Positions 43,159 to 57,154 of a stretch of 64,000 bases of DNA are shown in pieces (position 1 is the stretch's first letter; each line of letters opens with the position of its first letter). The translations under genes and the position numbers were made by a program. Source of the DNA: an uncultured bacterium. GTDB lineage: Bacteria; Acidobacteriota; JAQAZP01. The DNA lies in NCBI GenBank assembly GCA_965531145.1, contig CBESOE010000004.1, positions 24,912-88,911 on the forward strand. Reading direction: 5' to 3'. The notes under the pieces were generated by a model that was given only the letters and a program-made list of their open reading frames with translations, did not search any database and was not told the origin of the DNA.

Positions 43159-46056
43159 TCACGTCTCCCACCGCCAGCTGCCCAGGGCCAGCCCCGCCAC
43201 GATGTACGCCATGAGGTTCAGCGAGAACCAGTAGAGCCCGTCGAAGAGCAGCATGCTCAGCGAGAGGCCGGCCAGGCCGTAGATCATCGCCGTGGCCAGC
43301 TGGCGCCCCTCCTCGTCGGGGCAGGAGGACCGGCGGGTGAGGAGCGAGCGGAAAAGGAACCAGAGGAAGAGCAGGAAGAGGAGCGCCCCGGTGACCCCGG
43401 TCTCGGCGGCGATGCGGATCATCATGTTGTCCGGGGTGTTGTATTGCTCGTGGAGGAACTCCTTGCCCTTGTGGCCGCCAAAGTTCAACGCCTCCCGGGA
43501 GTAGTTGCCCGGCCCCACACCCAGCAGGGGGTTGGCGGCAGTCATGGCCAGACCGCTCTGCCAGCCGGCCAGCCGCTGGACCACCGCCGCCGACCGTGAG
43601 ATGGAGCCGAGGTCGACAAAGCGGTCCCGCAACTGGTCGCGGGCCGTGCCGGAAACCAGGGCCAGCCCGCCCAGGGACAGGACCAGGAGGACGGCACCCG
43701 CGACCAGCAGCAGCAGCTTGCGCCGGCCGAGGAAAACAGCGGCAAAGAGGGCGAGGATGACCAGCGCCCCGCGGGAGAAGGTGAGCACCAGGGCCGCCAG
43801 GATCACCAGCGACCAGGCGCTCCAGAAAATGCGGGACAGATAACAGGCGCCCTTGCGCCAGCCGAGCCACACCCCCAGGGGCAGAACCAGCAGAAGAAAG
43901 GTGGCCAGGGCGATGGGCACCACAAAGGTGGAGGCCGCGCGGAAGATCGGCACCTCGAAGTAGAACGGGGCATAGACCTTGAGAATGTTGTGCAGCAGCG
44001 GGTTGTAGCCCAGGGCATACTCGGCGACGGCCAGCAGCGAAACGGCCGTGGCCGAGAGGACCAGCGCCCGCAGCAGCAGCCCTGTTCCACGCCATGTTCC
44101 CGAGGAGGCGAGAATCAGCAGCAGGACCAGTGCGGGGAGGACAAAGAAGAGAATCGTCTGCAGGCTGGGCAGGGACCAGGCGGAGAAGAGGCTGCCGGCA
44201 AGGGCCACGAGGAGAAAAAGACCGAAAGAGATCAGGGCCCGCCGGGCCTGGACACCACCGGGCTCTTCTTCCGCGGGGAACCAGAGCCGGCGGCCCAGGA
44301 GCAGACGGAAAGGCACCAGCAGAAGCAGCAGCAGGTGCAGCGGGGTGAAGCTGATCCCGCCAACCCAGGTGCGCATGCCGCTGTAGTGTTCGAAGGGGAA
44401 GCAGGCGGCCAGGGCCACGAGCAGGATCAGCAGCAGCCGGTACGGGGTAACGGTCAGGGCGGAACCGGGAACGGTGCCTCCCTGACGGCGCAACCTGCCG
44501 ATGAGCGGCAGGATCAGCAACAGGGCCACGGCCGTCTGGAGCCACTGGCCCCAGTCCAGGCCCAGGGGCCGGGCGCGGCAGAGCTGCAGCACCGGTGCCT
44601 TGACCAGCCGGACCCGCTGAACACCGGTCCGCACAGGGTGGTTGGCCGGTTCCAGGCGCAGCCGGGTGATCTCCCCCTCCCACAGCGGGTGGGATCCGAC
44701 ATCGAGGTAGTAGATCTCGTCTCCGCCGTAACGGTTGAGGCGGAACTGGATGGAGCGGCGGCGGCTGAACCTCGGGTCGCTGCCGGTGGCCCAGTAGAAG
44801 CGCCCCTCCCCCACCCCGCTGTTCACCCGGCCCATGACTTCGATCAAGTCCACATCCCCGGCCCGGATCTTCTGCTGCTTCGCGGTGATCAGTCCGTCTC
44901 CGGGCAAGGCCAGGTCAAGCAGGGCAAATCCGCTCTCCAGCACCGGCGGCGGCTGGTTCTTCCGCGGCTGCCAGCCCTGCCAGCCCCGCTCCTCGGTGAA
45001 CACCCATTCCGCGGCAAAGGGGCCGATGAACTCCTCGTCGCCGGCCCGCGCCCTGGCAGCGTTCCTCTTGGTCTCCAGTACCCAGTCGGTCTGCAGGGCC
45101 ATGGCGTCGAGGTGCAGGCTGAGCCTCCCCTGGTTGACCGGCAACTCCAGTAACTCCACCCGCACGGCCCGCGGTGCGACGACCTCCGGCAGCCGGCGGC
45201 GGCTGTAGAAAGAACGACCGAGGCAAATGATGCCGGGGATCGTCTTCCACAATCCGGGGAGGGAGATATCGGCACAATCGAGGCCGTTGACCAGTTGGAT
45301 CTCGGTCTCCCCGCCCTCGGCATCCTCGATCACCAGCCGGGCCACGGCCTGACCGAACTCGATGCCAAAGGTATCGTTGAGCGATGACGAGATCTCGATG
45401 GCCCGGCAGGGGGGGAACCCGGGGGTGGGGATCCTGGTGGCCGGCTGCCCGGCGGTCAGGGTGATCAGCTGGTTCTGGGGCACCGGCTTGAAGTGCATGA
45501 ACGCTTCCCGCCGGTCGTCCGACTCCTCCGCACCGGTGACCCGGATCGACTCCAGGGCCAGGGTTCCCTGCTCCATAATTGGATCGAAACGGAGCTGGTC
45601 GATGGTCCCCCGCCACCAGGGCGAGCGGCCCACCTCGACGCGGCAGGTCTGCTGGACACCATCCAGCACCACCCGGAAGTAAGCACTTTTCCTGCTGCTC
45701 CAGCCCTGGTCACCCGGGTTCATCCAGAAGAGCTGGCCCACGGTGGCATCCCGCCCCAGCCGGCCCCTGGCGGCCAGTCGCATCAGTACCAGCGAGGCCT
45801 GGTCGGCGTCGAGGGCGAGGCCGGGCCGGGTGATCAGGTAGGGATCTTCCCCGGGCACTGTGTAGACCGGCATTCCCCCGATCTCACCCGCTGCGGAGGG
45901 TTCCAGTTGCTGGACATACTCGAACCGGCTGAAAGAGGGATCCTCCGCGGCTGACCAGGACCAGAATGGTGCCGGCCCGGGTTCATTCTGCGCCAGAGCG
46001 GGAATGGAGAGAGAGGTCAATACGGCGCACAGGGCCATGAGCAGCAGTCTTCTCAT
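43159..46056 (-). CDS. O-antigen ligase/Wzy-like polytopic membrane protein with a ~500-aa N-terminal extracytoplasmic domain
   Basis: Signal peptide MRRLLLMALCAVLTSLSIPALA; a 500-aa soluble domain; then ~12 TM helices with a Wzy_C/O-antigen-ligase-like periplasmic loop (...LTFSRGALVILALFAAVFLG...). 4-bp overlap with the downstream GT2 gene. Confidence 0.7.
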   Translation of the reverse strand: MRRLLLMALCAVLTSLSIPALAQNEPGPAPFWSWSAAEDPSFSRFEYVQQLEPSAAGEIGGMPVYTVPGEDPYLITRPGLALDADQASLVLMRLAARGRLGRDATVGQLFWMNPGDQGWSSRKSAYFRVVLDGVQQTCRVEVGRSPWWRGTIDQLRFDPIMEQGTLALESIRVTGAEESDDRREAFMHFKPVPQNQLITLTAGQPATRIPTPGFPPCRAIEISSSLNDTFGIEFGQAVARLVIEDAEGGETEIQLVNGLDCADISLPGLWKTIPGIICLGRSFYSRRRLPEVVAPRAVRVELLELPVNQGRLSLHLDAMALQTDWVLETKRNAARARAGDEEFIGPFAAEWVFTEERGWQGWQPRKNQPPPVLESGFALLDLALPGDGLITAKQQKIRAGDVDLIEVMGRVNSGVGEGRFYWATGSDPRFSRRRSIQFRLNRYGGDEIYYLDVGSHPLWEGEITRLRLEPANHPVRTGVQRVRLVKAPVLQLCRARPLGLDWGQWLQTAVALLLILPLIGRLRRQGGTVPGSALTVTPYRLLLILLVALAACFPFEHYSGMRTWVGGISFTPLHLLLLLLVPFRLLLGRRLWFPAEEEPGGVQARRALISFGLFLLVALAGSLFSAWSLPSLQTILFFVLPALVLLLILASSGTWRGTGLLLRALVLSATAVSLLAVAEYALGYNPLLHNILKVYAPFYFEVPIFRAASTFVVPIALATFLLLVLPLGVWLGWRKGACYLSRIFWSAWSLVILAALVLTFSRGALVILALFAAVFLGRRKLLLLVAGAVLLVLSLGGLALVSGTARDQLRDRFVDLGSISRSAAVVQRLAGWQSGLAMTAANPLLGVGPGNYSREALNFGGHKGKEFLHEQYNTPDNMMIRIAAETGVTGALLFLLFLWFLFRSLLTRRSSCPDEEGRQLATAMIYGLAGLSLSMLLFDGLYWFSLNLMAYIVAGLALGSWRWET

Positions 46057-47090
46057 CGACCACCTCCACCAAGGAAAGGCCGGAAGCGAAAGAACCCGGC
46101 AGCCATGCCGGCCAGCAGCGCCAGGGCGCGCAGTCCCAGCAGGAACGGCGAGGCCAGGGCCAGCAGCGGGTCCCGGCGCAGCGTGGCCGCGGCAAAGGGG
46201 ACCGTGGCCGCTATAAAAATCACCAGGAAGAGCAGTGACAGCAAAGCTGCCGGCGGGTAGACCAGGGCGGCGGCCAGCGTGGCCAGAGCCCCGGCCGCGG
46301 CGGCCAGCTGGGCCTTCAATGTCCGCGGGGTGTAGCTGTCCCCGGCAGCCTTGCCCGGGTAACGGCGGTAGACCTTCATCCGCCAGTAGCCACGGCTCAC
46401 CTTCAACCTGACATACCCGGCCAGCGAGGCCCGGTGCCGGTGCTCCACCACCGCCGCCGGGGCAAAGACCATCCGGTGACCGGCAGCGGCAATGCGGTAG
46501 GAGAGATCAACGTCCTCGTTGTTGGGCACCGGGAAGCTGGTGTCGAACCCGCCCACCTCTTCCAGCACCAGCCGGCGAAACGCCGCGGCATAGGTGTCGA
46601 CAAAGTCGATGGAGTCGAGGCGGGCCATCAGGCGATACCGTTCCTCGAATTCAGCCTGGGCAAACCTGGCGGCCAGCGAGCGCTGGGCCGTACGGTAGGT
46701 GCCTTTCACCCCGCCCACCTCCGGGTCCTCCAGCAGGGGGCGGCAGATCTCGGCCACCCAGCGCTGGTCGGGAATGCAGTCGGCATCGGTGAAGAGCACC
46801 AGATCTCCCCGGGCCGCCTCGATACCGGCGTTGCGGGCCACGGCCGGACCACCCCGGGTGCCCAGGCCGATTACCCGCAGCGCCTCGCCCCCGGCCTCCC
46901 GGGCCGCACGGGCCGTGCCGTCGGTGGAGCCATCGTCCACCACCAGCAGTTCCACCCGGCCGGGCAGATCCTGCTGGCCGGCCAGGGCGCGGACACAGAG
47001 CGGCAGCCGGTCCGCGGCATTGAACACCGGCACCACCACCGAGATCAGCGGTGCGGAAGTATCCTGCTGTTCGGCTGTGCTGGTCATCAT
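46053..47090 (-). CDS. Family 2 glycosyltransferase with C-terminal TM helices
   Basis: Start at MMTSTAEQ (47090) inside track ORF 46053..47228. GT2 motifs ISVVVPVFNAADRL ... VDDGSTDGT ... FTDADC. 4-bp overlap with the radical SAM gene. Confidence 0.85.
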   Translation of the reverse strand: MMTSTAEQQDTSAPLISVVVPVFNAADRLPLCVRALAGQQDLPGRVELLVVDDGSTDGTARAAREAGGEALRVIGLGTRGGPAVARNAGIEAARGDLVLFTDADCIPDQRWVAEICRPLLEDPEVGGVKGTYRTAQRSLAARFAQAEFEERYRLMARLDSIDFVDTYAAAFRRLVLEEVGGFDTSFPVPNNEDVDLSYRIAAAGHRMVFAPAAVVEHRHRASLAGYVRLKVSRGYWRMKVYRRYPGKAAGDSYTPRTLKAQLAAAAGALATLAAALVYPPAALLSLLFLVIFIAATVPFAAATLRRDPLLALASPFLLGLRALALLAGMAAGFFRFRPFLGGGGR

Positions 47091-48532
47091 CCCCTGAACA
47101 GGTATTTGATAAATGTCTTCAGCGCCTTGACATTGCGCACCGCTTCCCCGGGATCGGTCACCGTCTGCCAGGCCTTGTAGAGCAGGTACCGCGGCCGGAG
47201 GTAGAACCGCCTCCGGGCGCGGTTGCAAAAGGCCACCAGTTGGGCGCCGTCAACGCTGCCGGTGGAAATCACGCAATTGTGCTGGCCGGTCTCATCCAGC
47301 CATTGGGTGTAGTCCTCGGTCTCCAGCAGCCCTTCCGAGCGGTAGAACTCGTAGGCCGTGGTGCCGGGGTAGACCATCACCGGGTAGAACTGAGCCGTGT
47401 CGGGCCGCAGGGCGGCGGCCAGCCGGTAGGTCCGCTCCAGGTCGTCGGCGGTCTCCCCCGGGAACCCGACGATGAAGCAGCCGTGGACCAGGATGCCGGC
47501 CTGGCGGGCGTCCCGGACAAACTGGTGCATCCGCATGGTGTCCAGCTTCTTCTCGATAAAGGCCAGCGAGGCCGGGGCGCCGCTTTCGAAGCCGACGCAC
47601 ACCTGCCGGCAGCCGGCCCGTTTCATCAGCTGCAGCAGCTCCACCGGGACATCGGCCCGGGCATTGGCCGTCCAGGGGATATCGATGCCGGCGGCGAGGA
47701 TCGCCTCGCAGAGCGCCGCCACCCGCTTCGACCCCAGGGTAAAAGTGTCGTCCTCGAAAAAGAGCCCGCGGACCTCGGGGAAATGTTGCTTGATGTAGTG
47801 CAGTTCCTCAACCACGTTCTCCGGCGAGCGGGTGCGCAGCCGCCGGCCCATGGTGGTCTGGGGGTAGAGACAGAAGCTGCAGCTGTGGGGGCAACCGCGG
47901 CTGGTGACCAGGGTCAGCATGGGGTAGAGCGAATTGGGGTTGAAGTAGTGAGCCGGCACCAGGTGGCGGCGGTAGAAGGCGGAGACAAAGGGCAGCTGGT
48001 CAAGGTCGGCGATGGGTTGACGGGGCGCGGTGACCACCGTCCCGTCCCCCTCGCCGCGCAGCACCAGGCCCGGAACTCCGGACAGCTCCAGGCCCTGCTC
48101 CAGGGCCGCGGCGAGATCACGAACGGTTTCGTCGTATTCACCCACCACCACCGCGTCCAGCGCCGGGCACTGGTCCAGTGCCTCTTCCGGCAGGGAGGTT
48201 ACATGGGTCCCGGTGGCCACCGTAAAGCAGTTGGGCAACCGCTCCCTGATCCGCTCCGTAAAGCGGAGGTCATTGTTGATGCTCGGGGTAGAGGTGTCGA
48301 TCACCGCCAGTGCCGGGTCACCGGCAACGGCCTCGTCCAGGGCGGCCGTTTCGTCCAGGCCCCGGGCCGGTGCATCCACCATGGTCACCAGGAACCCCGA
48401 CGCCTCCAGCAGCGCGCCGGCGTGGGCCAGCCAGAGGGGATAGTAGAGCGTCCCGCTGCGGGTCACCGCCGGGCTCCGCTGAGCCCTGGAATAGAGCGGC
48501 AGGTAGGGCGGGTTGATCAGGCTGACCTTCAC
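47087..48532 (-). CDS. B12-binding domain radical SAM protein (class B radical SAM)
   Basis: Likely GTG start at 48532 (VKVSLINPPY...) preceded by GGAAGGAG RBS and overlapping the GT9 TGA stop (GTGA). N-terminal B12-binding Rossmann-like region, then radical SAM core SRGCPHSCSFCLYP (CxxxCxxC). Confidence 0.85.
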   Translation of the reverse strand: MKVSLINPPYLPLYSRAQRSPAVTRSGTLYYPLWLAHAGALLEASGFLVTMVDAPARGLDETAALDEAVAGDPALAVIDTSTPSINNDLRFTERIRERLPNCFTVATGTHVTSLPEEALDQCPALDAVVVGEYDETVRDLAAALEQGLELSGVPGLVLRGEGDGTVVTAPRQPIADLDQLPFVSAFYRRHLVPAHYFNPNSLYPMLTLVTSRGCPHSCSFCLYPQTTMGRRLRTRSPENVVEELHYIKQHFPEVRGLFFEDDTFTLGSKRVAALCEAILAAGIDIPWTANARADVPVELLQLMKRAGCRQVCVGFESGAPASLAFIEKKLDTMRMHQFVRDARQAGILVHGCFIVGFPGETADDLERTYRLAAALRPDTAQFYPVMVYPGTTAYEFYRSEGLLETEDYTQWLDETGQHNCVISTGSVDGAQLVAFCNRARRRFYLRPRYLLYKAWQTVTDPGEAVRNVKALKTFIKYLFRG

Positions 48533-49752
48533 CGGGTCTCTCCTTCCACTGTGGGTCCGGCGGACAGGATCTCCATACAGCAATTATAAACCGCTTCGAG
48601 GTCGATCTGCTCCATGCAGGGGGTCGATCGTGTGCAGCCGGGAAAGGGCTCGTTGTTGTAACAGGGGCTGCAGTCCTGCCGGGCCTCGATCACCCGCACC
48701 CCCGGCTGGTCCAGGGGCAGGAGCGCCGCCGCCCTGGTGGGGCCGAAAAGGCCCACCAGGGGAACACCGAGGGCCAGGGCCATGTGCATCGGCGCCGAGT
48801 CCACCGTGACCAGCAGGGCCACCCGGCGAATCAGTCCGGCCAGCGATCTGAGGCTGGTGGACCCGGAAAAATCGACGGCCGGGCGGTTCATTCTTCCGGC
48901 CACCTCCCGGACCAGCTCCGCTTCCCCAGGTGAGCCGAAAAGCCAGACCGGCCGCCCGGTCTGCTCGTTGATCCGGTCGGCCAGGGCGGCAAACCGATCG
49001 GCCGGCCACCGTTTCTCCGGCACGCGATCACGCGGATTGACCCCGCCGCCCGGGACCAGGCCCACCGGCCCGCCGTTGCCGGCATCGGCACCCAACGCCT
49101 TGATCAGCCGCTCCGCCTCCCGGTCCGCCTCCTCCCCCGGATGGAACTCCAGCGACCGGCCGCCCGGGCCAGACTCCGGCACACCGCCGCCGCAGGCCGC
49201 CGCGGCCAGCCGGAGATAGTCGTCCAGCACGTAGTGCAGGTCATTGGGCCCGCGCCAGGGCACAGACGAGGTGAGGGAGAACCCCGATCCGCCGGCATCG
49301 AAACCGATGCGGTTGGGCACACCGGCCAGGCGGGCCAGCAGGTGAACCGGCCAGGCCGGGTGGAAGATCACCGCCGTCTCGCATCCCAGCCGGCCGATCA
49401 ATCGCACCGTCTCCCGCACCGCAGCGGGACGGCGGGCCAGCAACCGCTGCTCGGGTACAGCCACCACCCGGTGAAGATGGGGATTCCCCTCGAGGAGCGG
49501 CAGGGCGCTGTCTCCGGTGAGAAAGATCAGCTCCGCCTCGGGAAGCTGCCGGCGGAGCAGGCGGATCGCCGGCGTGACCATCAGGATGTCGCCGAGGGCG
49601 TGGGTCTTGACCAGCAGCACCCGGCCCGGTCGGGTCCGGTCGGGCCGGCGGTCCAGGCCCCGGGAAAGGGCCCGGCCCAGACCCTGGACGGTCTGCCTCC
49701 AGAACTGGCTGCCGCTGACGGTCATCCCGTCACCCTGGTCCTGCGGCTGCAC
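48529..49752 (-). CDS. Family 9 glycosyltransferase (LPS heptosyltransferase-like)
   Basis: GT9 pattern VLLVKTHALGDILMVTPAIRLLRRQLPEAELIFLTG ... GSPGEAE ... VTVDSAPMHMALALGVPLVGLFGPT. Start may be M at 49725. Confidence 0.8.
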   Translation of the reverse strand: MQPQDQGDGMTVSGSQFWRQTVQGLGRALSRGLDRRPDRTRPGRVLLVKTHALGDILMVTPAIRLLRRQLPEAELIFLTGDSALPLLEGNPHLHRVVAVPEQRLLARRPAAVRETVRLIGRLGCETAVIFHPAWPVHLLARLAGVPNRIGFDAGGSGFSLTSSVPWRGPNDLHYVLDDYLRLAAAACGGGVPESGPGGRSLEFHPGEEADREAERLIKALGADAGNGGPVGLVPGGGVNPRDRVPEKRWPADRFAALADRINEQTGRPVWLFGSPGEAELVREVAGRMNRPAVDFSGSTSLRSLAGLIRRVALLVTVDSAPMHMALALGVPLVGLFGPTRAAALLPLDQPGVRVIEARQDCSPCYNNEPFPGCTRSTPCMEQIDLEAVYNCCMEILSAGPTVEGETR

Positions 49753-49753
49753 C

Positions 49754-51193
49754 TCAGGTGAGCCGGAATTCCTCCCGCTGGCCCGCGGGCCAGATCACCC
49801 CGGCGTGCTCGTGCTGGGGGCAGAGGGCTGACGGTCCGGGCCCGGCCAGGGCTTCGGCCAGGTCCAGGCCGGCCTCGATGGAGTCGTCCATGTTGTTGTA
49901 CCAGAAGGTCCCGCAACGCCCGAGACAGAGGAGGTTGGCAAAGGGTGACAGCTGGTGGACGAAGCTGGCCAGCTGCTGCGGGTATTCCATGCGGTAGACC
50001 GGGTACGCTCCCCTGACCACTTCGCTGTGCACCCGCTCCACCCGGCTGCGCTCCACCAGCCTCACCGCTTCCAACTCGCCCACCACCTGCTCCTGGATCC
50101 GGGCCAGTTCCTCTGCCGCCGGCGGCTCGCCGGGCCAGGTCACTTCAACGCAGAGCCCGTCCTTGCCTGCGGGCACCAGGCCGGGGTGGAAGTTGCGCGG
50201 GAAGGAGATCCGCGAGATGGCCAGGTCGCTGTCCGAAAAGTATGTCCACTGATTCGGCGTCTCCACCTGCCCCGACACCTCCACATTGAAGATCAGCAGG
50301 CTGAGAAAGTCCAGACGGGGCAGGTCCACCCCCAGGCCGGCGGCCAGGTCGGCCGGAGGCGCGGTCCAGACCATCCAGGACGGCTCCACCCGCTGGCCCT
50401 GGAAACGAACCGCGGTGACCCGTTCCCCGTCACTCTCCAGGGCCAGGTCCTCCACGCCGGTGACCAGGCGGCCGCCGTCCCCGAGAAAGGCGTCGCGCAC
50501 CCGCTCCGCATAGAGGTCGATTCCCCCTTCGGGGTAGATGAACTTGGTCACCTTGGGCTTGGGCAGCAGAGCGATCCGCAGCACGTCGAACAGCGACCCC
50601 TGCTGGTAGCGGCGGTCGATGGTGGCCCGGTGGATCGACTGGCTGGCCCAGCTGTAATGCAACCGGTCGGGTGTGCAGTGGGCAAACTTGGTGGTGTAGC
50701 CCTTGAAGAAAACATCGTAGAGCGTCGGTCCGTAGCGGCTGACGATGTACTCTTCGAAACTCTGGTCGCCGCCGGCATCGTCATCCCTGTCCCCGCCCCG
50801 GCGCCCGGTCAGCAGGTCCCGCAGGCAGCGCAGAAGGACCGATGGCGGGAGGCGGAAGATGGAGGAGGTCCCCAGGGGCCAGGTGTGGTAGCGGCGGAAG
50901 AGGTAGACGCTGCTGCAGCGGTCGATGAGTACATACTGCTCCCCCAACGCTTCCCGGATCAGCGCCAGCGCCCGTTCGCTGTATGTATGGAAGCGGTGCG
51001 GCCCGATGTCGAAGGTGAAATCACCGTAGCGAAAACAGCGGGCCAGGCCGCCCACTTCGGGCAGACGCTCGATGAGCAGCACCGGCAGGCCGCGGCGGGT
51101 GAGCTCCCGCGCGGCGGTGAGACCGGCGATGCCGGCACCCACCACCACCACCGGCCGGCTGGTGTCGATCTGCCCGTTGTTGGTGCTCTCCAT
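49754..51193 (-). CDS. FAD-dependent oxidoreductase, UDP-galactopyranose-mutase-like / amine-oxidase superfamily
   Basis: Start at MESTNNGQIDTSRPVVVVGAGIAGLTAAREL (GxGxxG dinucleotide motif) inside track ORF 49754..51349; UGM-like ...GGLARCFRYGDFTFDIGPHRFHT. Confidence 0.7.
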   Translation of the reverse strand: MESTNNGQIDTSRPVVVVGAGIAGLTAARELTRRGLPVLLIERLPEVGGLARCFRYGDFTFDIGPHRFHTYSERALALIREALGEQYVLIDRCSSVYLFRRYHTWPLGTSSIFRLPPSVLLRCLRDLLTGRRGGDRDDDAGGDQSFEEYIVSRYGPTLYDVFFKGYTTKFAHCTPDRLHYSWASQSIHRATIDRRYQQGSLFDVLRIALLPKPKVTKFIYPEGGIDLYAERVRDAFLGDGGRLVTGVEDLALESDGERVTAVRFQGQRVEPSWMVWTAPPADLAAGLGVDLPRLDFLSLLIFNVEVSGQVETPNQWTYFSDSDLAISRISFPRNFHPGLVPAGKDGLCVEVTWPGEPPAAEELARIQEQVVGELEAVRLVERSRVERVHSEVVRGAYPVYRMEYPQQLASFVHQLSPFANLLCLGRCGTFWYNNMDDSIEAGLDLAEALAGPGPSALCPQHEHAGVIWPAGQREEFRLT

Positions 51194-51460
51194 CGTCCTC
51201 GCCTCTGCCCCGCACATCAACCCCGGCGGGCCTGCATTCATCTCTGACGGGAATTGGTTCTGGATCAGGGATGTGTCCTTCGACGAACAGCCAGTGTATC
51301 GGGCATTTCCGGCCCGCGTCAACCCGGGAGGAGCAAGCTGTCCCGGCAATTGGACTTGCCCGCTGATCTGATCCTAAGTAGAGTAACCACAGGTTATAAA
51401 CCATCACCCCCGGAAAGCCGATGAGAGAGAAGTGACTTCGGGGGAGCAGGGACCAGCAGC

Positions 51461-52603
51461 ATGCAGCGAGCAGCATTTTCCAGAACGGCAGCAGCGCAGA
51501 GATACGGGATACTCATCCTTCTGGTCGTTTTCTATCTCATTACCGGAGCGGTGGCAACAACGGCATCTGCCGATGAGACCACCTGCTCTGCCTGTGGCAA
51601 GACCATCCGCGGGGAGTACCTGGTTCTCGATGGTCACCCCTATTGCAGCCAGAACTGTATCGACGCGGTGCTCCCGGCCTGTGCGGTCTGTGGCGAGGCG
51701 ATCAGGGGCCCCTACCTGACCTTTGACGGCAGGCGGTACTGCAGCCAGGCCTGCCTGGACCGGAATCTGCCGGCCTGCGACATGTGCGGGCGTCCGGTGC
51801 AGGGTCAGTATTTTGAGAGCAAGGGGAAAACATACTGCAGCGATGACTGCTACCAGCTCTCGCTTCCCCGCTGCGAGGCCTGCGGCGAAGGGATGAAGGA
51901 GTGGCTGGAAATCGAGGGTCGGCTCTACTGCCACCCCTGCGCGGCCAGACAGCGTTGTGACGTCTGCGGCCACCCCGGGCAGACGTACGGCCTGGGCGAC
52001 GGACGGCGGATCTGCTCCCTCTGCCGGGAGACGGCGGTGATGGATCAGGCCGACGCCGAACAGCTCTTCCAGATGGTGCGCAAACGGATGGACCGCTCGC
52101 TTGACCTCGCCACCGACCACGAGATCGAGTTCCACCTGGTGAGCCGCGACGACCTGGACCGGATCAGCAACGGCTCTTCCAGCGGCCGGGAACTGGGCTA
52201 CTACCAGTACCAGGCCGAAACCACCACCACCTACCTCACCACCCGCGACCGCTACGGTCGGGAAGACAAACGGGTGGCCGGCGAGAAGACCGACAAGAAG
52301 TTCCGCATCTATGTTCTCTACGGGCTGCCGGAAAAACGACTGATGGAGGTGACGGCCCACGAACTGGCCCACGACTGGATGTATGCCAACCTGCCGCGGA
52401 TCAAGGCCCCGATCTTTGAAGAGGGATTTGCCGAATACGTGGCCTGGCTGGTCAATGACCGCTTTGGCCACGAAAAGCTGAAGATACGGATCGAAGAGAA
52501 CAGTGACCCGATCTATGGCGACGGCTTCCAGATGATGAAGGGCCTGGCTGACCGGTATGGCGGCCTCGACGGTCTGATCGGGTATCTCGACGAACTTCCC
52601 TGA
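51461..52603 (+). CDS. Membrane-anchored DA1-like protein: five tandem LIM-type single zinc fingers plus a C-terminal HExxH metallopeptidase domain
   Basis: TM anchor ILILLVVFYLITGAVATTASA. Five C-x2-C-x(13-15)-[HC]-x2-C units (CSACGKTIRGEYLVLDGHPYCSQNC; CAVCGEAIRGPYLTFDGRRYCSQAC; CDMCGRPVQGQYFESKGKTYCSDDC; CEACGEGMKEWLEIEGRLYCHPC; CDVCGHPGQTYGLGDGRRICSLC). HELAHDWMY close to the DA1-family HEMMHAW motif. Confidence 0.7.
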   Translation: MQRAAFSRTAAAQRYGILILLVVFYLITGAVATTASADETTCSACGKTIRGEYLVLDGHPYCSQNCIDAVLPACAVCGEAIRGPYLTFDGRRYCSQACLDRNLPACDMCGRPVQGQYFESKGKTYCSDDCYQLSLPRCEACGEGMKEWLEIEGRLYCHPCAARQRCDVCGHPGQTYGLGDGRRICSLCRETAVMDQADAEQLFQMVRKRMDRSLDLATDHEIEFHLVSRDDLDRISNGSSSGRELGYYQYQAETTTTYLTTRDRYGREDKRVAGEKTDKKFRIYVLYGLPEKRLMEVTAHELAHDWMYANLPRIKAPIFEEGFAEYVAWLVNDRFGHEKLKIRIEENSDPIYGDGFQMMKGLADRYGGLDGLIGYLDELP

Positions 52604-52841: not shown

Positions 52842-52879
52842 CCGTGCCGGAGCCTTCACCGGCAATGGCACGGTTTTTG
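52842..52879 (+). terminator. Candidate intrinsic terminator / leader hairpin between the DA1-like gene and the cytochrome promoter
   Basis: CCGTGCCGG...CCGGCAATGGCACGG imperfect hairpin followed by TTTTTGT; ~240 nt downstream of the stop at 52603 and just upstream of TTGATAG / TATATG promoter-like hexamers. Confidence 0.35.
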
Positions 52880-52946: not shown

Positions 52947-55502
52947 GTGAAGGAGGATATCTTGTCATTCTATCCCGGCCGCAGCCTTCCGGAGAACGAC
53001 CCTCAACGGCCGTCCAGGACAGCCGGACGGGATAGTACGCTGCTTGATAATCCGTGGCTCCGATCAGCCCTGTTCCTGATCCTCTTCGCCGCCCTCTTCT
53101 TCTTCACCACCGGGATGAACGGCGAGGACGATTATCCCCACGGCGAGTTCGACGAAGACTGCACACTCTGTCACGGTGATGAAGATTGGCTGCCGGTGGT
53201 GATTTCGCCGGAGTTCGACCACGACGAGGTATCCGGCTTCACCCGGCGCGGAGCGCACCTCGACCTGGGCTGCCCCGCCTGTCACAAGAGCCTCAACTTC
53301 GCCGAGGCGCCCCGGGAGTGCGCCGGCTGCCACCTCGACGTGCACATGGGCGAGCTGGGCTCGGACTGCGGACGCTGCCATGAGATTTACAGTTTCATCG
53401 ACAACGCAAGCTGGCTGCGCCGGCACAGTTCCACCCGGTTTCCGCTCACCGGCAGGCACCTCACCGCCGACTGCGAGGAGTGCCACCCGCCCCAGCCCCA
53501 GGGCCGGCTGATCTGGGTCAACCGGCCGGTGGACTGTTTCGCCTGCCATAGGGAAGAATATGAAGGGACGGGCAATCCCGACCACCGCGCTGCCGGATTC
53601 CCCACTGGTTGCGAGCAGTGCCACTCCACCAGCAGTTGGACCACGGGCAGTAGCAGCAGCGGTCACAGCGGGTTCCCGCTCACCGGCGGGCACACCGGTC
53701 TCGATTGCGACCTCTGCCACATCGACGGTGTGTACGAAGGCACACCCACCCACTGCTTCGGTTGCCACCAGGACGACTACAACCGGGAGCACGCCGGCAG
53801 CGGCTTTCCCACCGACTGCACCCAGTGCCACTCCACCAGCGACTGGGACGCAGAGGAGACGGGGCACACCAGCTTCCCGCTCACCGGGGCCCACGCCCCG
53901 CTGGACTGTGACGCCTGCCACGCCAACGGGGTCTACGAAGGGACACCCAGCGACTGCTACGCCTGCCACCAGGACGACTACGACCAGACCGACGACCCGG
54001 ACCACCAGGCCGCCGGCTATCCCACCGACTGCGACCAGTGCCACTCCACCAGCAACTGGGATGCCGAGGACGCGCACACCAGCTTCCCGCTCACCGGCGG
54101 GCACGGCGGTCTCGACTGCAACGACTGCCACGCCAACGGTATCTACCAGGGAACGCCCACGAACTGCGTGGCCTGCCACCAGGACGACTACAACCGAGAG
54201 CACACCGGCAGCGGCTTTCCCACCGACTGCACCCAGTGCCACACAACGGCAACCTGGGAGGGAGCCACCGATCACTCGTCGTTCCCGCTCACCGGGGCCC
54301 ACGGCACACTGGACTGCGACGCCTGCCACGGCAATGGGGTCTATGAGGGGACACCCACCGACTGCTACGACTGCCACCGCAGCGACTACGACCAGGAGCA
54401 CGCCGGCAGTGGCTTCTCCACTGACTGCACCGAGTGCCACACCACCAGCAACTGGGATGCCGACATCGATCACACCGGCTGGCCGCTCACCGGCGCCCAC
54501 GCTGCTGTGGACTGCAGCCTCTGCCACATCAACGGGGTCTACGAGGGGACACCCACCGACTGCTGGTCCTGTCACAGCAGCGAGTACAACGAGGAGCACA
54601 GCGGCAGCGGCTTCCCCCATGACTGCACTGAATGCCACACCACATCCAGCTGGGACTCGGAGGATGCGCACACCGACTTCCCGCTCACCGGCGGGCATGG
54701 CGGCCTGGACTGCAACCTCTGCCATCCCGGCGGGTCCTACCAGGGGACACCCACCGACTGCTGGTCCTGTCACCAGGAGGACTACGAAGACGAGCATGCC
54801 GGCAGCGGCTTCCCCCACGACTGCACCGAGTGCCACACGATCAACGACTGGGACGCCGATTTCGCCCACACCACCTGGGCCCTCAATGGCGCCCATGCTT
54901 CGGTGGCCTGCAACGACTGTCATGAAAACGGCGTCTACGAAGGAACGCCCACCGACTGTTTCGATTGCCACCAGCAGGACTTCAGCGGTGAACATGGCGG
55001 GGAGGGATACCCCCACGACTGCCTGCTCTGTCACGACGAGAACAACTGGGACTCCGATTACGACCACGACTCGGTCTGGCCGCTCACCGGCGAGCACCGC
55101 TTTGCCAACTGCACCGAGTGCCATATCAACGATGTGTACCAGGGGACACCCACACTCTGCTACGACTGTCACCGGGAAGATTACGAGGACGAGCACTCCA
55201 GCAGCACGCCCCACCAGTGCGAGGAGTGTCACAACACCAGTGACTGGGATGATGCCAACAGCCGGGCCGCCATGCCGAACCACGACGCGCTGTTCCCCAT
55301 CCACTCCGGCCGGCACCGCAACCTCTGGTTCTCCTGCAAGGACTGTCATCCGAACAAGAAGAACCCGTCCGTGTTCACCTGCGCCGGCTGTCACTCCCCC
55401 GGTGACCACCCGGCCTCCGGCCTGAAAAAAGCGGGCCCGGCCCCCTCTGTTTTCAGAAGCGTGGACCGGGACTGCCTGGTCTGCCATCCGAGGGGGGACT
55501 GA
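52947..55502 (+). CDS. Multihaem c-type cytochrome with 34 CxxCH motifs, N-terminal membrane/signal anchor
   Basis: 34 CxxCH motifs counted in 851 aa (CTLCH, CPACH, CAGCH, CGRCH ... CAGCH, CLVCH), many as paired CXXCH ~10 aa apart with abundant extra His for bis-His ligation. Hydrophobic N-terminal segment SALFLILFAALFFFTTG. Likely real start is TTG at 52962, 5 nt after a strong GAAGGAGGA SD; the track used GTG at 52947. Confidence 0.8.
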   Translation: MKEDILSFYPGRSLPENDPQRPSRTAGRDSTLLDNPWLRSALFLILFAALFFFTTGMNGEDDYPHGEFDEDCTLCHGDEDWLPVVISPEFDHDEVSGFTRRGAHLDLGCPACHKSLNFAEAPRECAGCHLDVHMGELGSDCGRCHEIYSFIDNASWLRRHSSTRFPLTGRHLTADCEECHPPQPQGRLIWVNRPVDCFACHREEYEGTGNPDHRAAGFPTGCEQCHSTSSWTTGSSSSGHSGFPLTGGHTGLDCDLCHIDGVYEGTPTHCFGCHQDDYNREHAGSGFPTDCTQCHSTSDWDAEETGHTSFPLTGAHAPLDCDACHANGVYEGTPSDCYACHQDDYDQTDDPDHQAAGYPTDCDQCHSTSNWDAEDAHTSFPLTGGHGGLDCNDCHANGIYQGTPTNCVACHQDDYNREHTGSGFPTDCTQCHTTATWEGATDHSSFPLTGAHGTLDCDACHGNGVYEGTPTDCYDCHRSDYDQEHAGSGFSTDCTECHTTSNWDADIDHTGWPLTGAHAAVDCSLCHINGVYEGTPTDCWSCHSSEYNEEHSGSGFPHDCTECHTTSSWDSEDAHTDFPLTGGHGGLDCNLCHPGGSYQGTPTDCWSCHQEDYEDEHAGSGFPHDCTECHTINDWDADFAHTTWALNGAHASVACNDCHENGVYEGTPTDCFDCHQQDFSGEHGGEGYPHDCLLCHDENNWDSDYDHDSVWPLTGEHRFANCTECHINDVYQGTPTLCYDCHREDYEDEHSSSTPHQCEECHNTSDWDDANSRAAMPNHDALFPIHSGRHRNLWFSCKDCHPNKKNPSVFTCAGCHSPGDHPASGLKKAGPAPSVFRSVDRDCLVCHPRGD
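53547..55227 (+). repeat. Coding tandem repeat: ~9 copies of a ~60-aa three-haem module
   Basis: Recurring unit GFPTDCTQCHSTSDWDAEETGHTSFPLTGAHAPLDCDACHANGVYEGTPSDCYACHQDDY with conserved F-P-L-T-G-[GA]-H and G-T-P-[TS]-D-C spacing. Confidence 0.75.
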
Positions 55503-57154
55503 TGATGAACAGCAGAACCCTCTTCACCGTGGCAATACTCCTGGCCCTCACTACCCTGATCACAGCTCGGCCACTGGCCGCCGCGGAAGCCGAACAGGCC
55601 ACCTGCCAGGTGACCTATCTCACCGGCAGTTCGGTCTACATCGACGCCGGCAGCGAGGACGGCCTGCGTCCCGGCGACCTGGTGGAACTGCTCAGCGGTG
55701 AGCAGGTGGTCATGGTGCTCCGGGTGCGCGACGTCTCCAGCCGCAAGGCGGCCTGCGTCCCCCAGGACCAGGAACTGGCCCTGGCCGGCCTGGTCAATGC
55801 CGGCGATACCGTGCGCTATGTCAAACACACCGCCGAGGCCTCAGCAGACCCGGCCGCTGCCGCGGGAGCGGTGGCCGGACAATCGGCCGGCGGCGCGGAG
55901 ACCGAAGAGCACAACGTGCCGGCGGATTCATCCGACGCCACCATCTTCGGCGGCCTGCGCGGGCGGGTGGGCCTGGCCTACCTGATGGTCAACGACAATG
56001 AGAACGACAGCGGCGGGTTCAGCCGGCCGGCGGTCACCCTGCGTCTCGACGGTGAGCACCTGGGTGACTCACCGTTCAGCATCCACATCGACACCCGGAT
56101 GCGGCGCACCACCAGCAACGTCGACGACGAAGCGGTGAACCGCGCCCGGGTCTACCGCTTCTCCGCCGAATACCAGCGACAGGGGTCGCCATACCGCTTC
56201 TCCCTGGGCCGGCAGTACTCGCCGGGGCTCTCCGGACTGACCCTCTTTGACGGCCTGCTGGCCGAGCGGCGCACCGACAAATGGGCCTTCGGCCTTTTCG
56301 GCGGCACCCAGCCCGACTACGAGGACTACACCTTTTCCTCGGACACTACCCAGTACGGCCTCTACGCCCAGCGGACCAGTCTTCCCGGCGCGGAGAAGCA
56401 GTGGGATCTGACCGCCGGTCTGGCCGCCACCTACGGCAAGGGCGAGGACTTCCGCGAGTTTCTCTTTCTCCAGGCCAACTACTTCACCCGGCGGCTGACC
56501 CTCTCCTTCAACCAGGAGGTGGACTTCAACCGCGACTGGAAATCGGACGCCGGGGAGAGCACGGTCCAGCCCACCAGCACCTTTGCCATCGCACGCTACC
56601 GGGTGGGCGACAACGTGACGCTGAACATCGGCTATGACGACCGGCGCCAGGTGATGCTCTACCGCGAGTTCGAGAACCCGGAGACCGAGTTCGACGACGA
56701 CAACCGGCAGGGGCTGTGGGGCGGGGTCGACGTGAGCTTCCTCAGGCGCTACCGCGCCGGGGTGCAGTATCGCGGTAACAGCGGTGGCGATGCCGGCAGT
56801 TCCAACTCCTACACCCTGACCCTGGGGGCGGCGGACCTCTTCCCCTTCCACCTCGACATCGGGGCACGTTCCACCCGTTTCGAGAACGACCGCTCGGAGG
56901 GCTGGCTCAACTCGCTGAACCTCTACCTGCCGGTGGGCCGGCGCACCCAGTTCTCGCTCTACGGGGGGCTGCGCCAGGATGAATACCCCAACGCGCTCAG
57001 CTCGGACCTGACCAGCCAGGACCTGGTCTGGTATGGCGCGGAGATGAACCTCCGCCTGGGCCGGTCGTGGTTCTTCCTCATCTCACTGGAACGGAATTCC
57101 GGAGACACCGAGGACTTCGACCAGCTCTACACCATGATCAGCTACCGGTTTTGA
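55502..57154 (+). CDS. Outer-membrane beta-barrel protein co-transcribed with the multihaem cytochrome (candidate porin partner)
   Basis: ATG overlaps the cytochrome TGA (ATGATGA). Signal peptide MMNSRTLFTVAILLALTTLITARPLAAAEA; ~120-aa N-terminal soluble segment; then alternating-pattern strands rich in Y/G/R/D; C-terminal ...YTMISYRF. Confidence 0.7.
   Translation: MMNSRTLFTVAILLALTTLITARPLAAAEAEQATCQVTYLTGSSVYIDAGSEDGLRPGDLVELLSGEQVVMVLRVRDVSSRKAACVPQDQELALAGLVNAGDTVRYVKHTAEASADPAAAAGAVAGQSAGGAETEEHNVPADSSDATIFGGLRGRVGLAYLMVNDNENDSGGFSRPAVTLRLDGEHLGDSPFSIHIDTRMRRTTSNVDDEAVNRARVYRFSAEYQRQGSPYRFSLGRQYSPGLSGLTLFDGLLAERRTDKWAFGLFGGTQPDYEDYTFSSDTTQYGLYAQRTSLPGAEKQWDLTAGLAATYGKGEDFREFLFLQANYFTRRLTLSFNQEVDFNRDWKSDAGESTVQPTSTFAIARYRVGDNVTLNIGYDDRRQVMLYREFENPETEFDDDNRQGLWGGVDVSFLRRYRAGVQYRGNSGGDAGSSNSYTLTLGAADLFPFHLDIGARSTRFENDRSEGWLNSLNLYLPVGRRTQFSLYGGLRQDEYPNALSSDLTSQDLVWYGAEMNLRLGRSWFFLISLERNSGDTEDFDQLYTMISYRF

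Follow-up and report, generated by a model that had tools for sequence, protein, structure and literature searches.

Among the closest described relatives of the protein discussed here are the plant DA1/DAR peptidases, represented by Arabidopsis DA1, which are intracellular enzymes that combine one canonical LIM domain and one LIM-like domain with a zinc peptidase bearing the motif HEMMHAW. The active site of plant DA1 is HEMMH-x15-EE, of the clan MA type (Dong et al. 2017, PMC5322733), and the protein is filed by MEROPS as family M102 (PMC8643629), the corresponding Pfam model being DA1-like (PF12315). Here we describe a gene found in a 64,000-nucleotide stretch of contig CBESOE010000004.1 from an uncultured member of the Acidobacteriota, the whole of which is referred to as the window. 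Its product, for which homology, motif conservation, a predicted fold, a clade-wide N-terminal signal, and a variable finger number were observed or computed, is probably a zinc metalloendopeptidase that is exported by Sec, belongs to the DA1-like LIM-peptidase family, and carries an array of cysteine fingers.

Bacterial members of this family are already on record. Dong et al. aligned a "Roseiflexus LIM-peptidase" with DA1, citing Burroughs, Iyer & Aravind 2011 (PMC5322733), and the names given by NCBI to Chloroflexota members include "protein DA1" (e.g., [Anaerolineae bacterium]) and "LIM domain-containing protein". The original prediction for this gene, made from the letters of the window, described a bacterial DA1-like protein with an N-terminal membrane anchor next to a cytochrome operon. 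Its DA1-like/LIM-peptidase core has stood up well, while the topology, the cytochrome link, and the implied novelty of such a protein in bacteria have not, the last because of the record just cited. A literature search brought up no description of exported DA1-like proteins as a bacterial clade, and other publications of the Burroughs group yielded no pertinent LIM or DA1 text; given the incomplete literature coverage, this is weak evidence of absence. The family is known and the exported clade apparently undescribed.

Family Identity and Peptidase Domain

The C-terminal domain carries HELAHDWMY at residues 300–308, as had been announced. Searches with hidden Markov models, proposed at the outset as a check, gave scores above the gathering cutoffs for both expected families, namely DA1-like (32.7 bits against a cutoff of 25, E 6.2e-8, residues 219–328) and LIM (PF00412; 26.4 bits against 22.9, with the best stretch at residues 74–132). 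In an alignment of 68 sequences, which spans relatives down to about 25–30% identity, the DA1-like model is matched by 58 members and the LIM model by 15, the best at 1.2e-23. NCBIfam provided no model for the protein.

Across the same alignment H300, E301, H304, E321, G322, and Y352 are invariant, so that the HExxH...E triad is fully retained, and E325 is kept in at least 90% of the sequences. Of the two grounds on which the original prediction was to be refuted, a lack of DA1-like or peptidase matches and a loss of this triad, neither applied. HELAH is followed by 15 residues and then by E320–E321, i.e., HExxH-x15-EE, and directly N-terminal to the peptidase lie four CxxC pairs (C138/141, C157/160, C166/169, and C185/188), the layout of a LIM-like module. 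In these features, and in matching the Pfam model, the window protein resembles plant DA1/DAR. It differs from them in having no UIMs (ubiquitin-interacting motifs), no ubiquitin system for its activation, an export signal at the N-terminus, HELAHD as its active-site motif, and ligands in the fingers that are all Cys. N-terminal to the fingers neither a UIM nor any other Pfam match was found, residues 1–37 being the predicted signal peptide; UIMs are a plant-specific accessory feature and do not define the Pfam family.

Regarding other metallopeptidases, the EEGFAEY segment resembles the NEGFA motif of the M1 enzymes, and a comparison with the family profile gave a match for the M1 active-site segment at 4.7e-6. 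The Pfam model Peptidase_M1 (PF01433) gives a weak, sub-cutoff match at this segment (17.3 bits against 27.7), and the exopeptidase motif G-x-M-E-N was not found in the protein sequence; on these two grounds membership among the M1 aminopeptidases was rejected, and the relation to M1 is one of fold and clan only. Compared with the M1 aminopeptidase and thermolysin-type gluzincins, the protein also lacks the M1 N- and C-terminal domains. Because of this absence, the missing G-x-M-E-N, and the sub-cutoff score, the enzyme is more likely to be an endopeptidase than an exopeptidase. The predicted model combines LIM-like fingers with a gluzincin peptidase, and Y352 is, by analogy with M1 enzymes, a candidate for stabilizing the transition state.

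Two Clades of LIM-Peptidases

A word-indexed search returned 139 relatives, and an exhaustive one 1,675 representative clusters at E ≤1e-3, with 132 of them at E ≤1e-30. They fall into two groups, recognizable by their active-site motifs, HELAHD[WY]M and HEW[AG]HAWQ. Nearly all proteins of the first type open with a short, positively charged stretch, a hydrophobic core, and a site of small residues, with the first CxxC a few residues further on. Those of the second, plant-like type, mainly from Chloroflexota, begin directly with the fingers.

In a neighbor-joining tree of the shared core, built from 165 sequences, all 98 HExxH-D proteins, together with two others, fall on one side of a single bipartition, a split that reappears in 16 of 20 bootstrap replicates and is the same under a safer distance cap. 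A signal-like N-terminus is present in 91/100 proteins on the HExxH-D side versus 4/65 on the other, and most of the signal-less exceptions on the HExxH-D side resemble truncated or over-extended gene calls. The cytoplasmic LIM-peptidases of Roseiflexus and other Chloroflexota, of which 61/65 lack a signal peptide, share the same architecture, fingers followed by a peptidase, and have a homologous core, but they sit on the other side of the tree, whereas the window protein belongs to the HExxH-D clade, whose members have signal peptides and fingers arrayed at a regular 32-residue interval. Over 230 columns, running from finger 4 to the C-terminus, hhalign aligns the two clades with a probability of 100% (E 3.9e-51), which points clearly to homology in the core.

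The closest genomic relatives of the window protein (75–76% identity) are encoded in metagenome-assembled genomes of Acidobacteriota, in line with an origin of the window in this phylum. The HExxH-D clade is found mainly in Lentisphaerota, Acidobacteriota, Delongbacteria, and TA06; most exported members come from Lentisphaerota/Victivallales, including the cultured Victivallis vadensis DSM 14823 and strains WC36 and zth2, and others from Candidatus Delongbacteria, UBP2/UBP11, Verrucomicrobia, Bacteroidia, Ignavibacteriales, TA06, and Desulfocucumaceae. Many carriers were sampled from rumen, gut, sediment, and groundwater.

Some HExxH-A-type relatives, P0091, P0099, P0119, and P0319 among them, have features of their own. 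In some the fingers are far more numerous (16 CxxC motifs in P0091, P0099, and P0119), some are matched by RING-type models (zf-C3HC4_3 in 4/68 aligned members), and in a few an N-terminal signal was seen. Neither export nor finger expansion is, therefore, exclusive to the HExxH-D clade.

N-Terminal Signal and Cellular Location

The N-terminus of the window protein has the layout of a Sec type I signal, with an n-region containing R3, R8, and R14, an h-region at about residues 15–29, and a c-region, AVATTASA, that ends in A35-S36-A37 before D38-E39 and thus places small residues at −3 and −1, as judged by a rule-based test. The predicted model has a low confidence here (predicted local distance difference test, pLDDT) and shows a helix at residues 13–27. 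Neither a twin-arginine motif for the Tat pathway nor the lipobox [LVI][ASTVI][GAS]C occurs in the protein, and among the relatives a lipobox-like match was seen in a single one. The best reading of this segment, from its sequence and that of its relatives, is a cleavable Sec signal peptide, whose cleavage would follow the A-S-A site.

The original prediction had seen an N-terminal transmembrane anchor, and its hydrophobic segment is indeed there. An uncleaved signal anchor, which would hold the protein at the inner membrane and leave its fingers and peptidase on the periplasmic side, would agree with the 23 uncharged residues at 15–37 (hydrophobicity peak at 17), with the helix of the model, and with the uncharged stretches of 20–25 residues seen in several relatives. 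However, the stretch falls readily into an h-region of some 15 residues and a polar c-region with a canonical A-x-A site. Close relatives keep A-L-A followed directly by D-D, 3–4 residues ahead of finger 1, in a segment whose other positions drift, and in most relatives the signal-like segment is short and ends in FAA, ASA, or ALA. Together with the signal found across the clade, these features make the anchor somewhat unlikely. The further suggestion, a cytoplasmic body on a type II anchor, is self-contradictory, because an anchor with its N-terminus inside places the body outside the cytoplasm. With a signal peptide or with such an anchor alike, the fingers and the peptidase are, judging from the sequence, most likely located outside the cytoplasm.

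The Cysteine Finger Array

Inspection of the sequence assigns the 20 Cys residues of the protein to five units of four. Units 1–3 read C-x2-C-x16-C-x3-C and recur with a strict period of 32 residues, units 4–5 read C-x2-C-x15-C-x2-C, the spacers between fingers measure 7, 7, 7, and 5 residues, and all 20 candidate ligands are Cys. This pattern is not due to chance, because even two or more such units arose in merely 2 of 20,000 composition-preserving shuffles. The count of five given by the original prediction is thus correct, and its motif, C-x2-C-x13-15-[HC]-x2-C, fits units 1, 4, and 5 only.

A canonical LIM domain is a double finger with a two-residue inter-finger spacer and a ligand set of C2HC plus C4, C2HC, or C3D. 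The window protein departs from it on both counts, having neither two-residue spacers nor ligands other than Cys. In the predicted model each unit consists of two hairpins and a helix with pLDDT >90, and the top Foldseek matches of the model are all tandem-LIM structures (1e-5 to 1e-4), so that a tandem treble-clef fold is found on a predicted structure rather than on a solved one. The most apt description of the units is a row of single treble-clef fingers of the LIM type. Plant DA1/DAR proteins have one canonical LIM and one LIM-like domain where the window protein has a regular row of five single fingers, separated by 7 or 5 residues. The same predicted finger fold occurs in series in eukaryotic tandem-LIM adaptors such as PINCH, Lhx3/4, paxillin, and FHL2, with a profile match at 1.5e-8, and this shared fold and serial layout support a role of the fingers in binding peptides or proteins. 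The fingers of the adaptors are paired and of the C2HC/C4 type, whereas those of the window protein are uniform Cys4 units, like beads on a string, and are predicted to be extracytoplasmic.

The five fingers do not behave alike among the relatives. In fingers 4 and 5, C157, C166, C169, C185, and C188 are invariant in the 68-sequence alignment, and C138, C141, and C160 are kept in at least 90% of it. The number of fingers in the exported clade, in which the modal spacing is 32 residues, is four in 111 proteins, five in 31, three in 16, two in 2, and six in 1. Units 1 and 2 of the window protein are identical at 19 of 32 residues, and in relatives with four fingers the sequence across the unit 1/2 junction is short by precisely one 32-residue period, as unequal crossing-over would be expected to leave it. 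Fingers 4–5 are the constant part of the protein and fingers 1–3 its expandable part.

The 32-residue unit (CxxCGK...[FY]CSxxC...LPxC) also builds N-terminal arrays of 8–10 copies in unrelated proteins of 590–800 amino acids (P0236, P0271, P0280, P0283, P0301, and P0333), which have no signal peptide. The array is fused there to an uncharacterized central domain and a Gly/Ala-rich hydrophobic C-terminus, and a Pfam scan of these proteins found no informative domain. Its occurrence in unrelated, signal-less proteins makes the unit a portable module that is not specific to export.

Two other views of the array were considered. According to the first, the 20 Cys residues would form disulfides, two per unit, instead of zinc sites, giving disulfide-stabilized knots of the same shape; exported Cys-rich repeats are usually disulfide-bonded in an oxidizing periplasm, and every unit has an even number of Cys residues. 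This view is unlikely, as the spacing and the flanking residues fit zinc treble-clef/LIM fingers, the repeat is shared with signal-less proteins in which disulfides would be improbable, and the periplasm of most carriers, which come from rumen, gut, sediment, and groundwater and include the strict anaerobe Victivallis, need not be oxidizing.

According to the second, the Cys4 array would be a TRASH/FCS-type module for sensing or buffering metal (zinc), rendering the protease dependent on periplasmic zinc or serving in zinc handling. Units 1–3 carry an [FY]CS-x2-C signature, which is typical of FCS/TRASH-type fingers, and a homologue from TA06 is preceded by a metal-transport operon. We regard this as improbable, because zf-FCS scored 6.7 bits against a cutoff of 22.4 (E 8.8) without any TRASH or YHS match in Pfam, FCS-type models reached E <1e-3 in only one or two of the 68 relatives, and the TA06 operon is a single case without a recurrent metal-transport neighbor over 58 loci. 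For want of significant Pfam support, a TRASH/zf-FCS identity of fingers 1–3 was rejected.

Gene Calling and Genomic Context

The features of the locus are collected in Table 1. The open reading frame (ORF) put forward by the original prediction is confirmed by the ORF list, by the same boundaries in the public gene calls of an 89-kb ENA metagenome contig that encodes an identical protein, and by a G+C content by codon position (0.62/0.45/0.79) as expected for coding DNA in this frame. The ORF that overlaps it on the minus strand is usual for high-GC DNA.

Table 1. Features of the peptidase gene and the adjacent spacer, in positions of the window
Feature	Position	Strand	Evidence
Coding sequence, probable exported DA1-like LIM-peptidase, complete, 380 amino acids plus stop	51461..52603	+	ORF list, public gene call, Pfam
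Predicted Sec signal peptide, residues 1–37, then D38	51461..51571	+	Rule-based analysis, conservation, low pLDDT
Finger 1 (C42, C45, C62, C66)	51584..51658	+	Cys spacing; model with two beta-hairpins and a short helix
Finger 2 (C74, C77, C94, C98)	51680..51754	+	Cys spacing
Finger 3 (C106, C109, C126, C130)	51776..51850	+	Cys spacing, model
Fingers 4 and 5 (C138/141/157/160; C166/169/185/188), LIM-like pair, family core	51872..52024	+	Conservation, profile alignment
Linker helix and gluzincin-type peptidase domain (residues 196–380)	52046..52600	+	
HELAH (H300, E301, H304), predicted zinc ligands and catalytic base	52358..52372	+	Invariant in 68 sequences
EEGFAEY (residues 320–326), with E321 as predicted third zinc ligand	52418..52438	+	Conservation
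Y352 in the YGDG motif, candidate transition-state-stabilizing residue	52514..52516	+	Invariant; M1 analogy
Terminator-like hairpin (52842–52873) plus UUUUU, between peptidase and cytochrome genes	52842..52878	+	

The adjacency to a cytochrome operon is real as far as position is concerned, since a gene for a 34-haem cytochrome starts 343 bp downstream in the same direction. The AT-rich spacer contains the terminator-like hairpin, which folds at −28.6 kcal/mol (71-nt segment, z = −3.5) and which a simple terminator scan passed over owing to an interior loop; its place between the two genes argues for a separate transcript. A tie of the protease to a multihaem cytochrome/outer-membrane system, e.g., in the processing or quality control of periplasmic cytochromes, is very improbable, for although both products would be periplasmic and the arrangement recurs in the identical public contig and in relatives at 66–76% identity (loci L001 and L002), other genes intervene in these two loci, relatives at 30–45% identity have unrelated neighbors and no cytochromes, and the hairpin is strong. 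A functional link was accordingly rejected, and the adjacency, which is not conserved beyond the immediate lineage, is best treated as incidental.

The downstream pair itself (52947–57154, plus strand) encodes an 851-amino-acid cytochrome with 34 CxxCH motifs and, with a start that overlaps the preceding stop, a protein of 550 amino acids that has a signal peptide, no Pfam match, and an aromatic C-terminus (...MISYRF) of the kind usual in outer-membrane beta-barrels. The two may form a porin-cytochrome electron conduit, and the pair also occurs in L001. Upstream of the peptidase gene, on the minus strand at 43159–51349, lies a divergent cluster of the glycan/lipopolysaccharide type, comprising a 964-amino-acid Wzy_C (O-antigen ligase-like) protein, a GT2 glycosyltransferase, a B12-binding radical S-adenosylmethionine protein, a GT9 heptosyltransferase, and a flavin adenine dinucleotide (FAD) amine-oxidase-like protein. 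This cluster is syntenic in L001, L002, and L090, and relatives at 66–76% identity keep it.

Further away, the neighbors of the relatives at 30–45% identity include genes of the phosphotransferase system (PTS), MatE, an ATP-grasp gene with a tandem paralogue, and a Zn/Mn-type ABC operon. When three genes on either side were clustered over 58 loci, only lineage-level synteny appeared, namely a divergent PTS HPr/EI pair in 15–16 Victivallales loci, and the idea of a conserved operon partner was rejected. The Zn/Mn-type operon belongs to the TA06 homologue P0024 (GCA_016235665.1; loci L004, 5313–8095, and L005, 1705–4544), which follows HTH_3, ABC_tran, and ABC-3 (Zn/Mn-type permease) genes at a distance of 27 nt, in the usual spot of a periplasmic metal-binding protein; as it did not recur in the 58 other loci, a metal-transport context was rejected as well. 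Lastly, L006 (6061–8981), and likewise L007 and L008, contain tandem DA1-like paralogues of 272 and 339 amino acids, followed by a 313-amino-acid protein without a Pfam match, an arrangement found on several independent contigs.

Proposed Mode of Action and Significance

We propose that the protein would be exported by Sec, probably losing its signal peptide between A37 and D38, and that the mature form would consist of five single treble-clef LIM-type Cys4 fingers, occupied by zinc outside the cytoplasm, and a gluzincin catalytic domain. In the latter, the catalytic zinc would be held by H300, H304, and E321, with E301 acting as general base and Y352 probably stabilizing the transition state of an endopeptidase reaction. 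Fingers 4–5 would be an obligatory LIM-like module coupled to the peptidase, because they are conserved in the relatives and because in plant DA1 the C274Y substitution in the LIM-like domain abolishes both ubiquitylation and peptidase activity. Fingers 1–3 would be a clade-specific array derived by tandem duplication of the 32-residue unit. This array would most likely recruit substrates, in analogy with LIM domains, by binding extended segments of target proteins and presenting them to the active site. In this mode of working the protein may be compared with the periplasmic zinc proteases of the BepA/YfgC type (M48 plus tetratricopeptide repeats), an analogy and not a family assignment, since these belong to another peptidase family and bind through tetratricopeptide repeats instead of zinc fingers; no sign of a role in outer-membrane protein assembly was seen for the window protein.

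Several points weigh against this proposal. Export was deduced from a rule-based analysis and from conservation across the clade, the length of the uncharged N-terminal stretch would suffice for a membrane anchor, Cys4 zinc sites are an uncommon feature of extracytoplasmic proteins, and the sharing of the finger repeat with signal-less proteins means that the fingers are not an export-specific module. In addition, the 58 loci held no conserved neighbor or partner that would hint at a substrate. The link with plant DA1 comes from the Pfam model and the published motif, and a profile search started from the cytoplasmic clade returned only bacterial proteins among its best 120 matches.

A more far-reaching view, which we consider doubtful, is that the exported HExxH-D clade represents the first LIM-type zinc-finger system outside the cytoplasm, a periplasmic or extracellular protease typical of anaerobes whose Cys4 fingers would both clamp extended substrate chains and act as a redox- or zinc-sensitive switch, such that oxidation or loss of zinc would unfold them and alter activity. 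Nothing in the evidence points to a new mechanism, and the outcome would be no more than a useful annotation if the protease had a generic housekeeping role or its fingers were knots held by disulfides.

The exported clade offers compact proteins (300–380 residues) with high-confidence models, one of them from the cultured Victivallis vadensis DSM 14823, and we know of no solved structure for the LIM-peptidase family; these proteins could be used as models for the structure and mechanism of the LIM-peptidase unit. The usual view places Cys4 zinc fingers in the cytoplasm or nucleus, and widespread exported arrays of them would raise the questions of how zinc is acquired and kept in the cell envelope and of what is bound there. 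Should the far-reaching view of the HExxH-D clade be true, the DA1 LIM-peptidase unit would be a general bacterial proteolytic device that existed before plants coupled it to ubiquitin.
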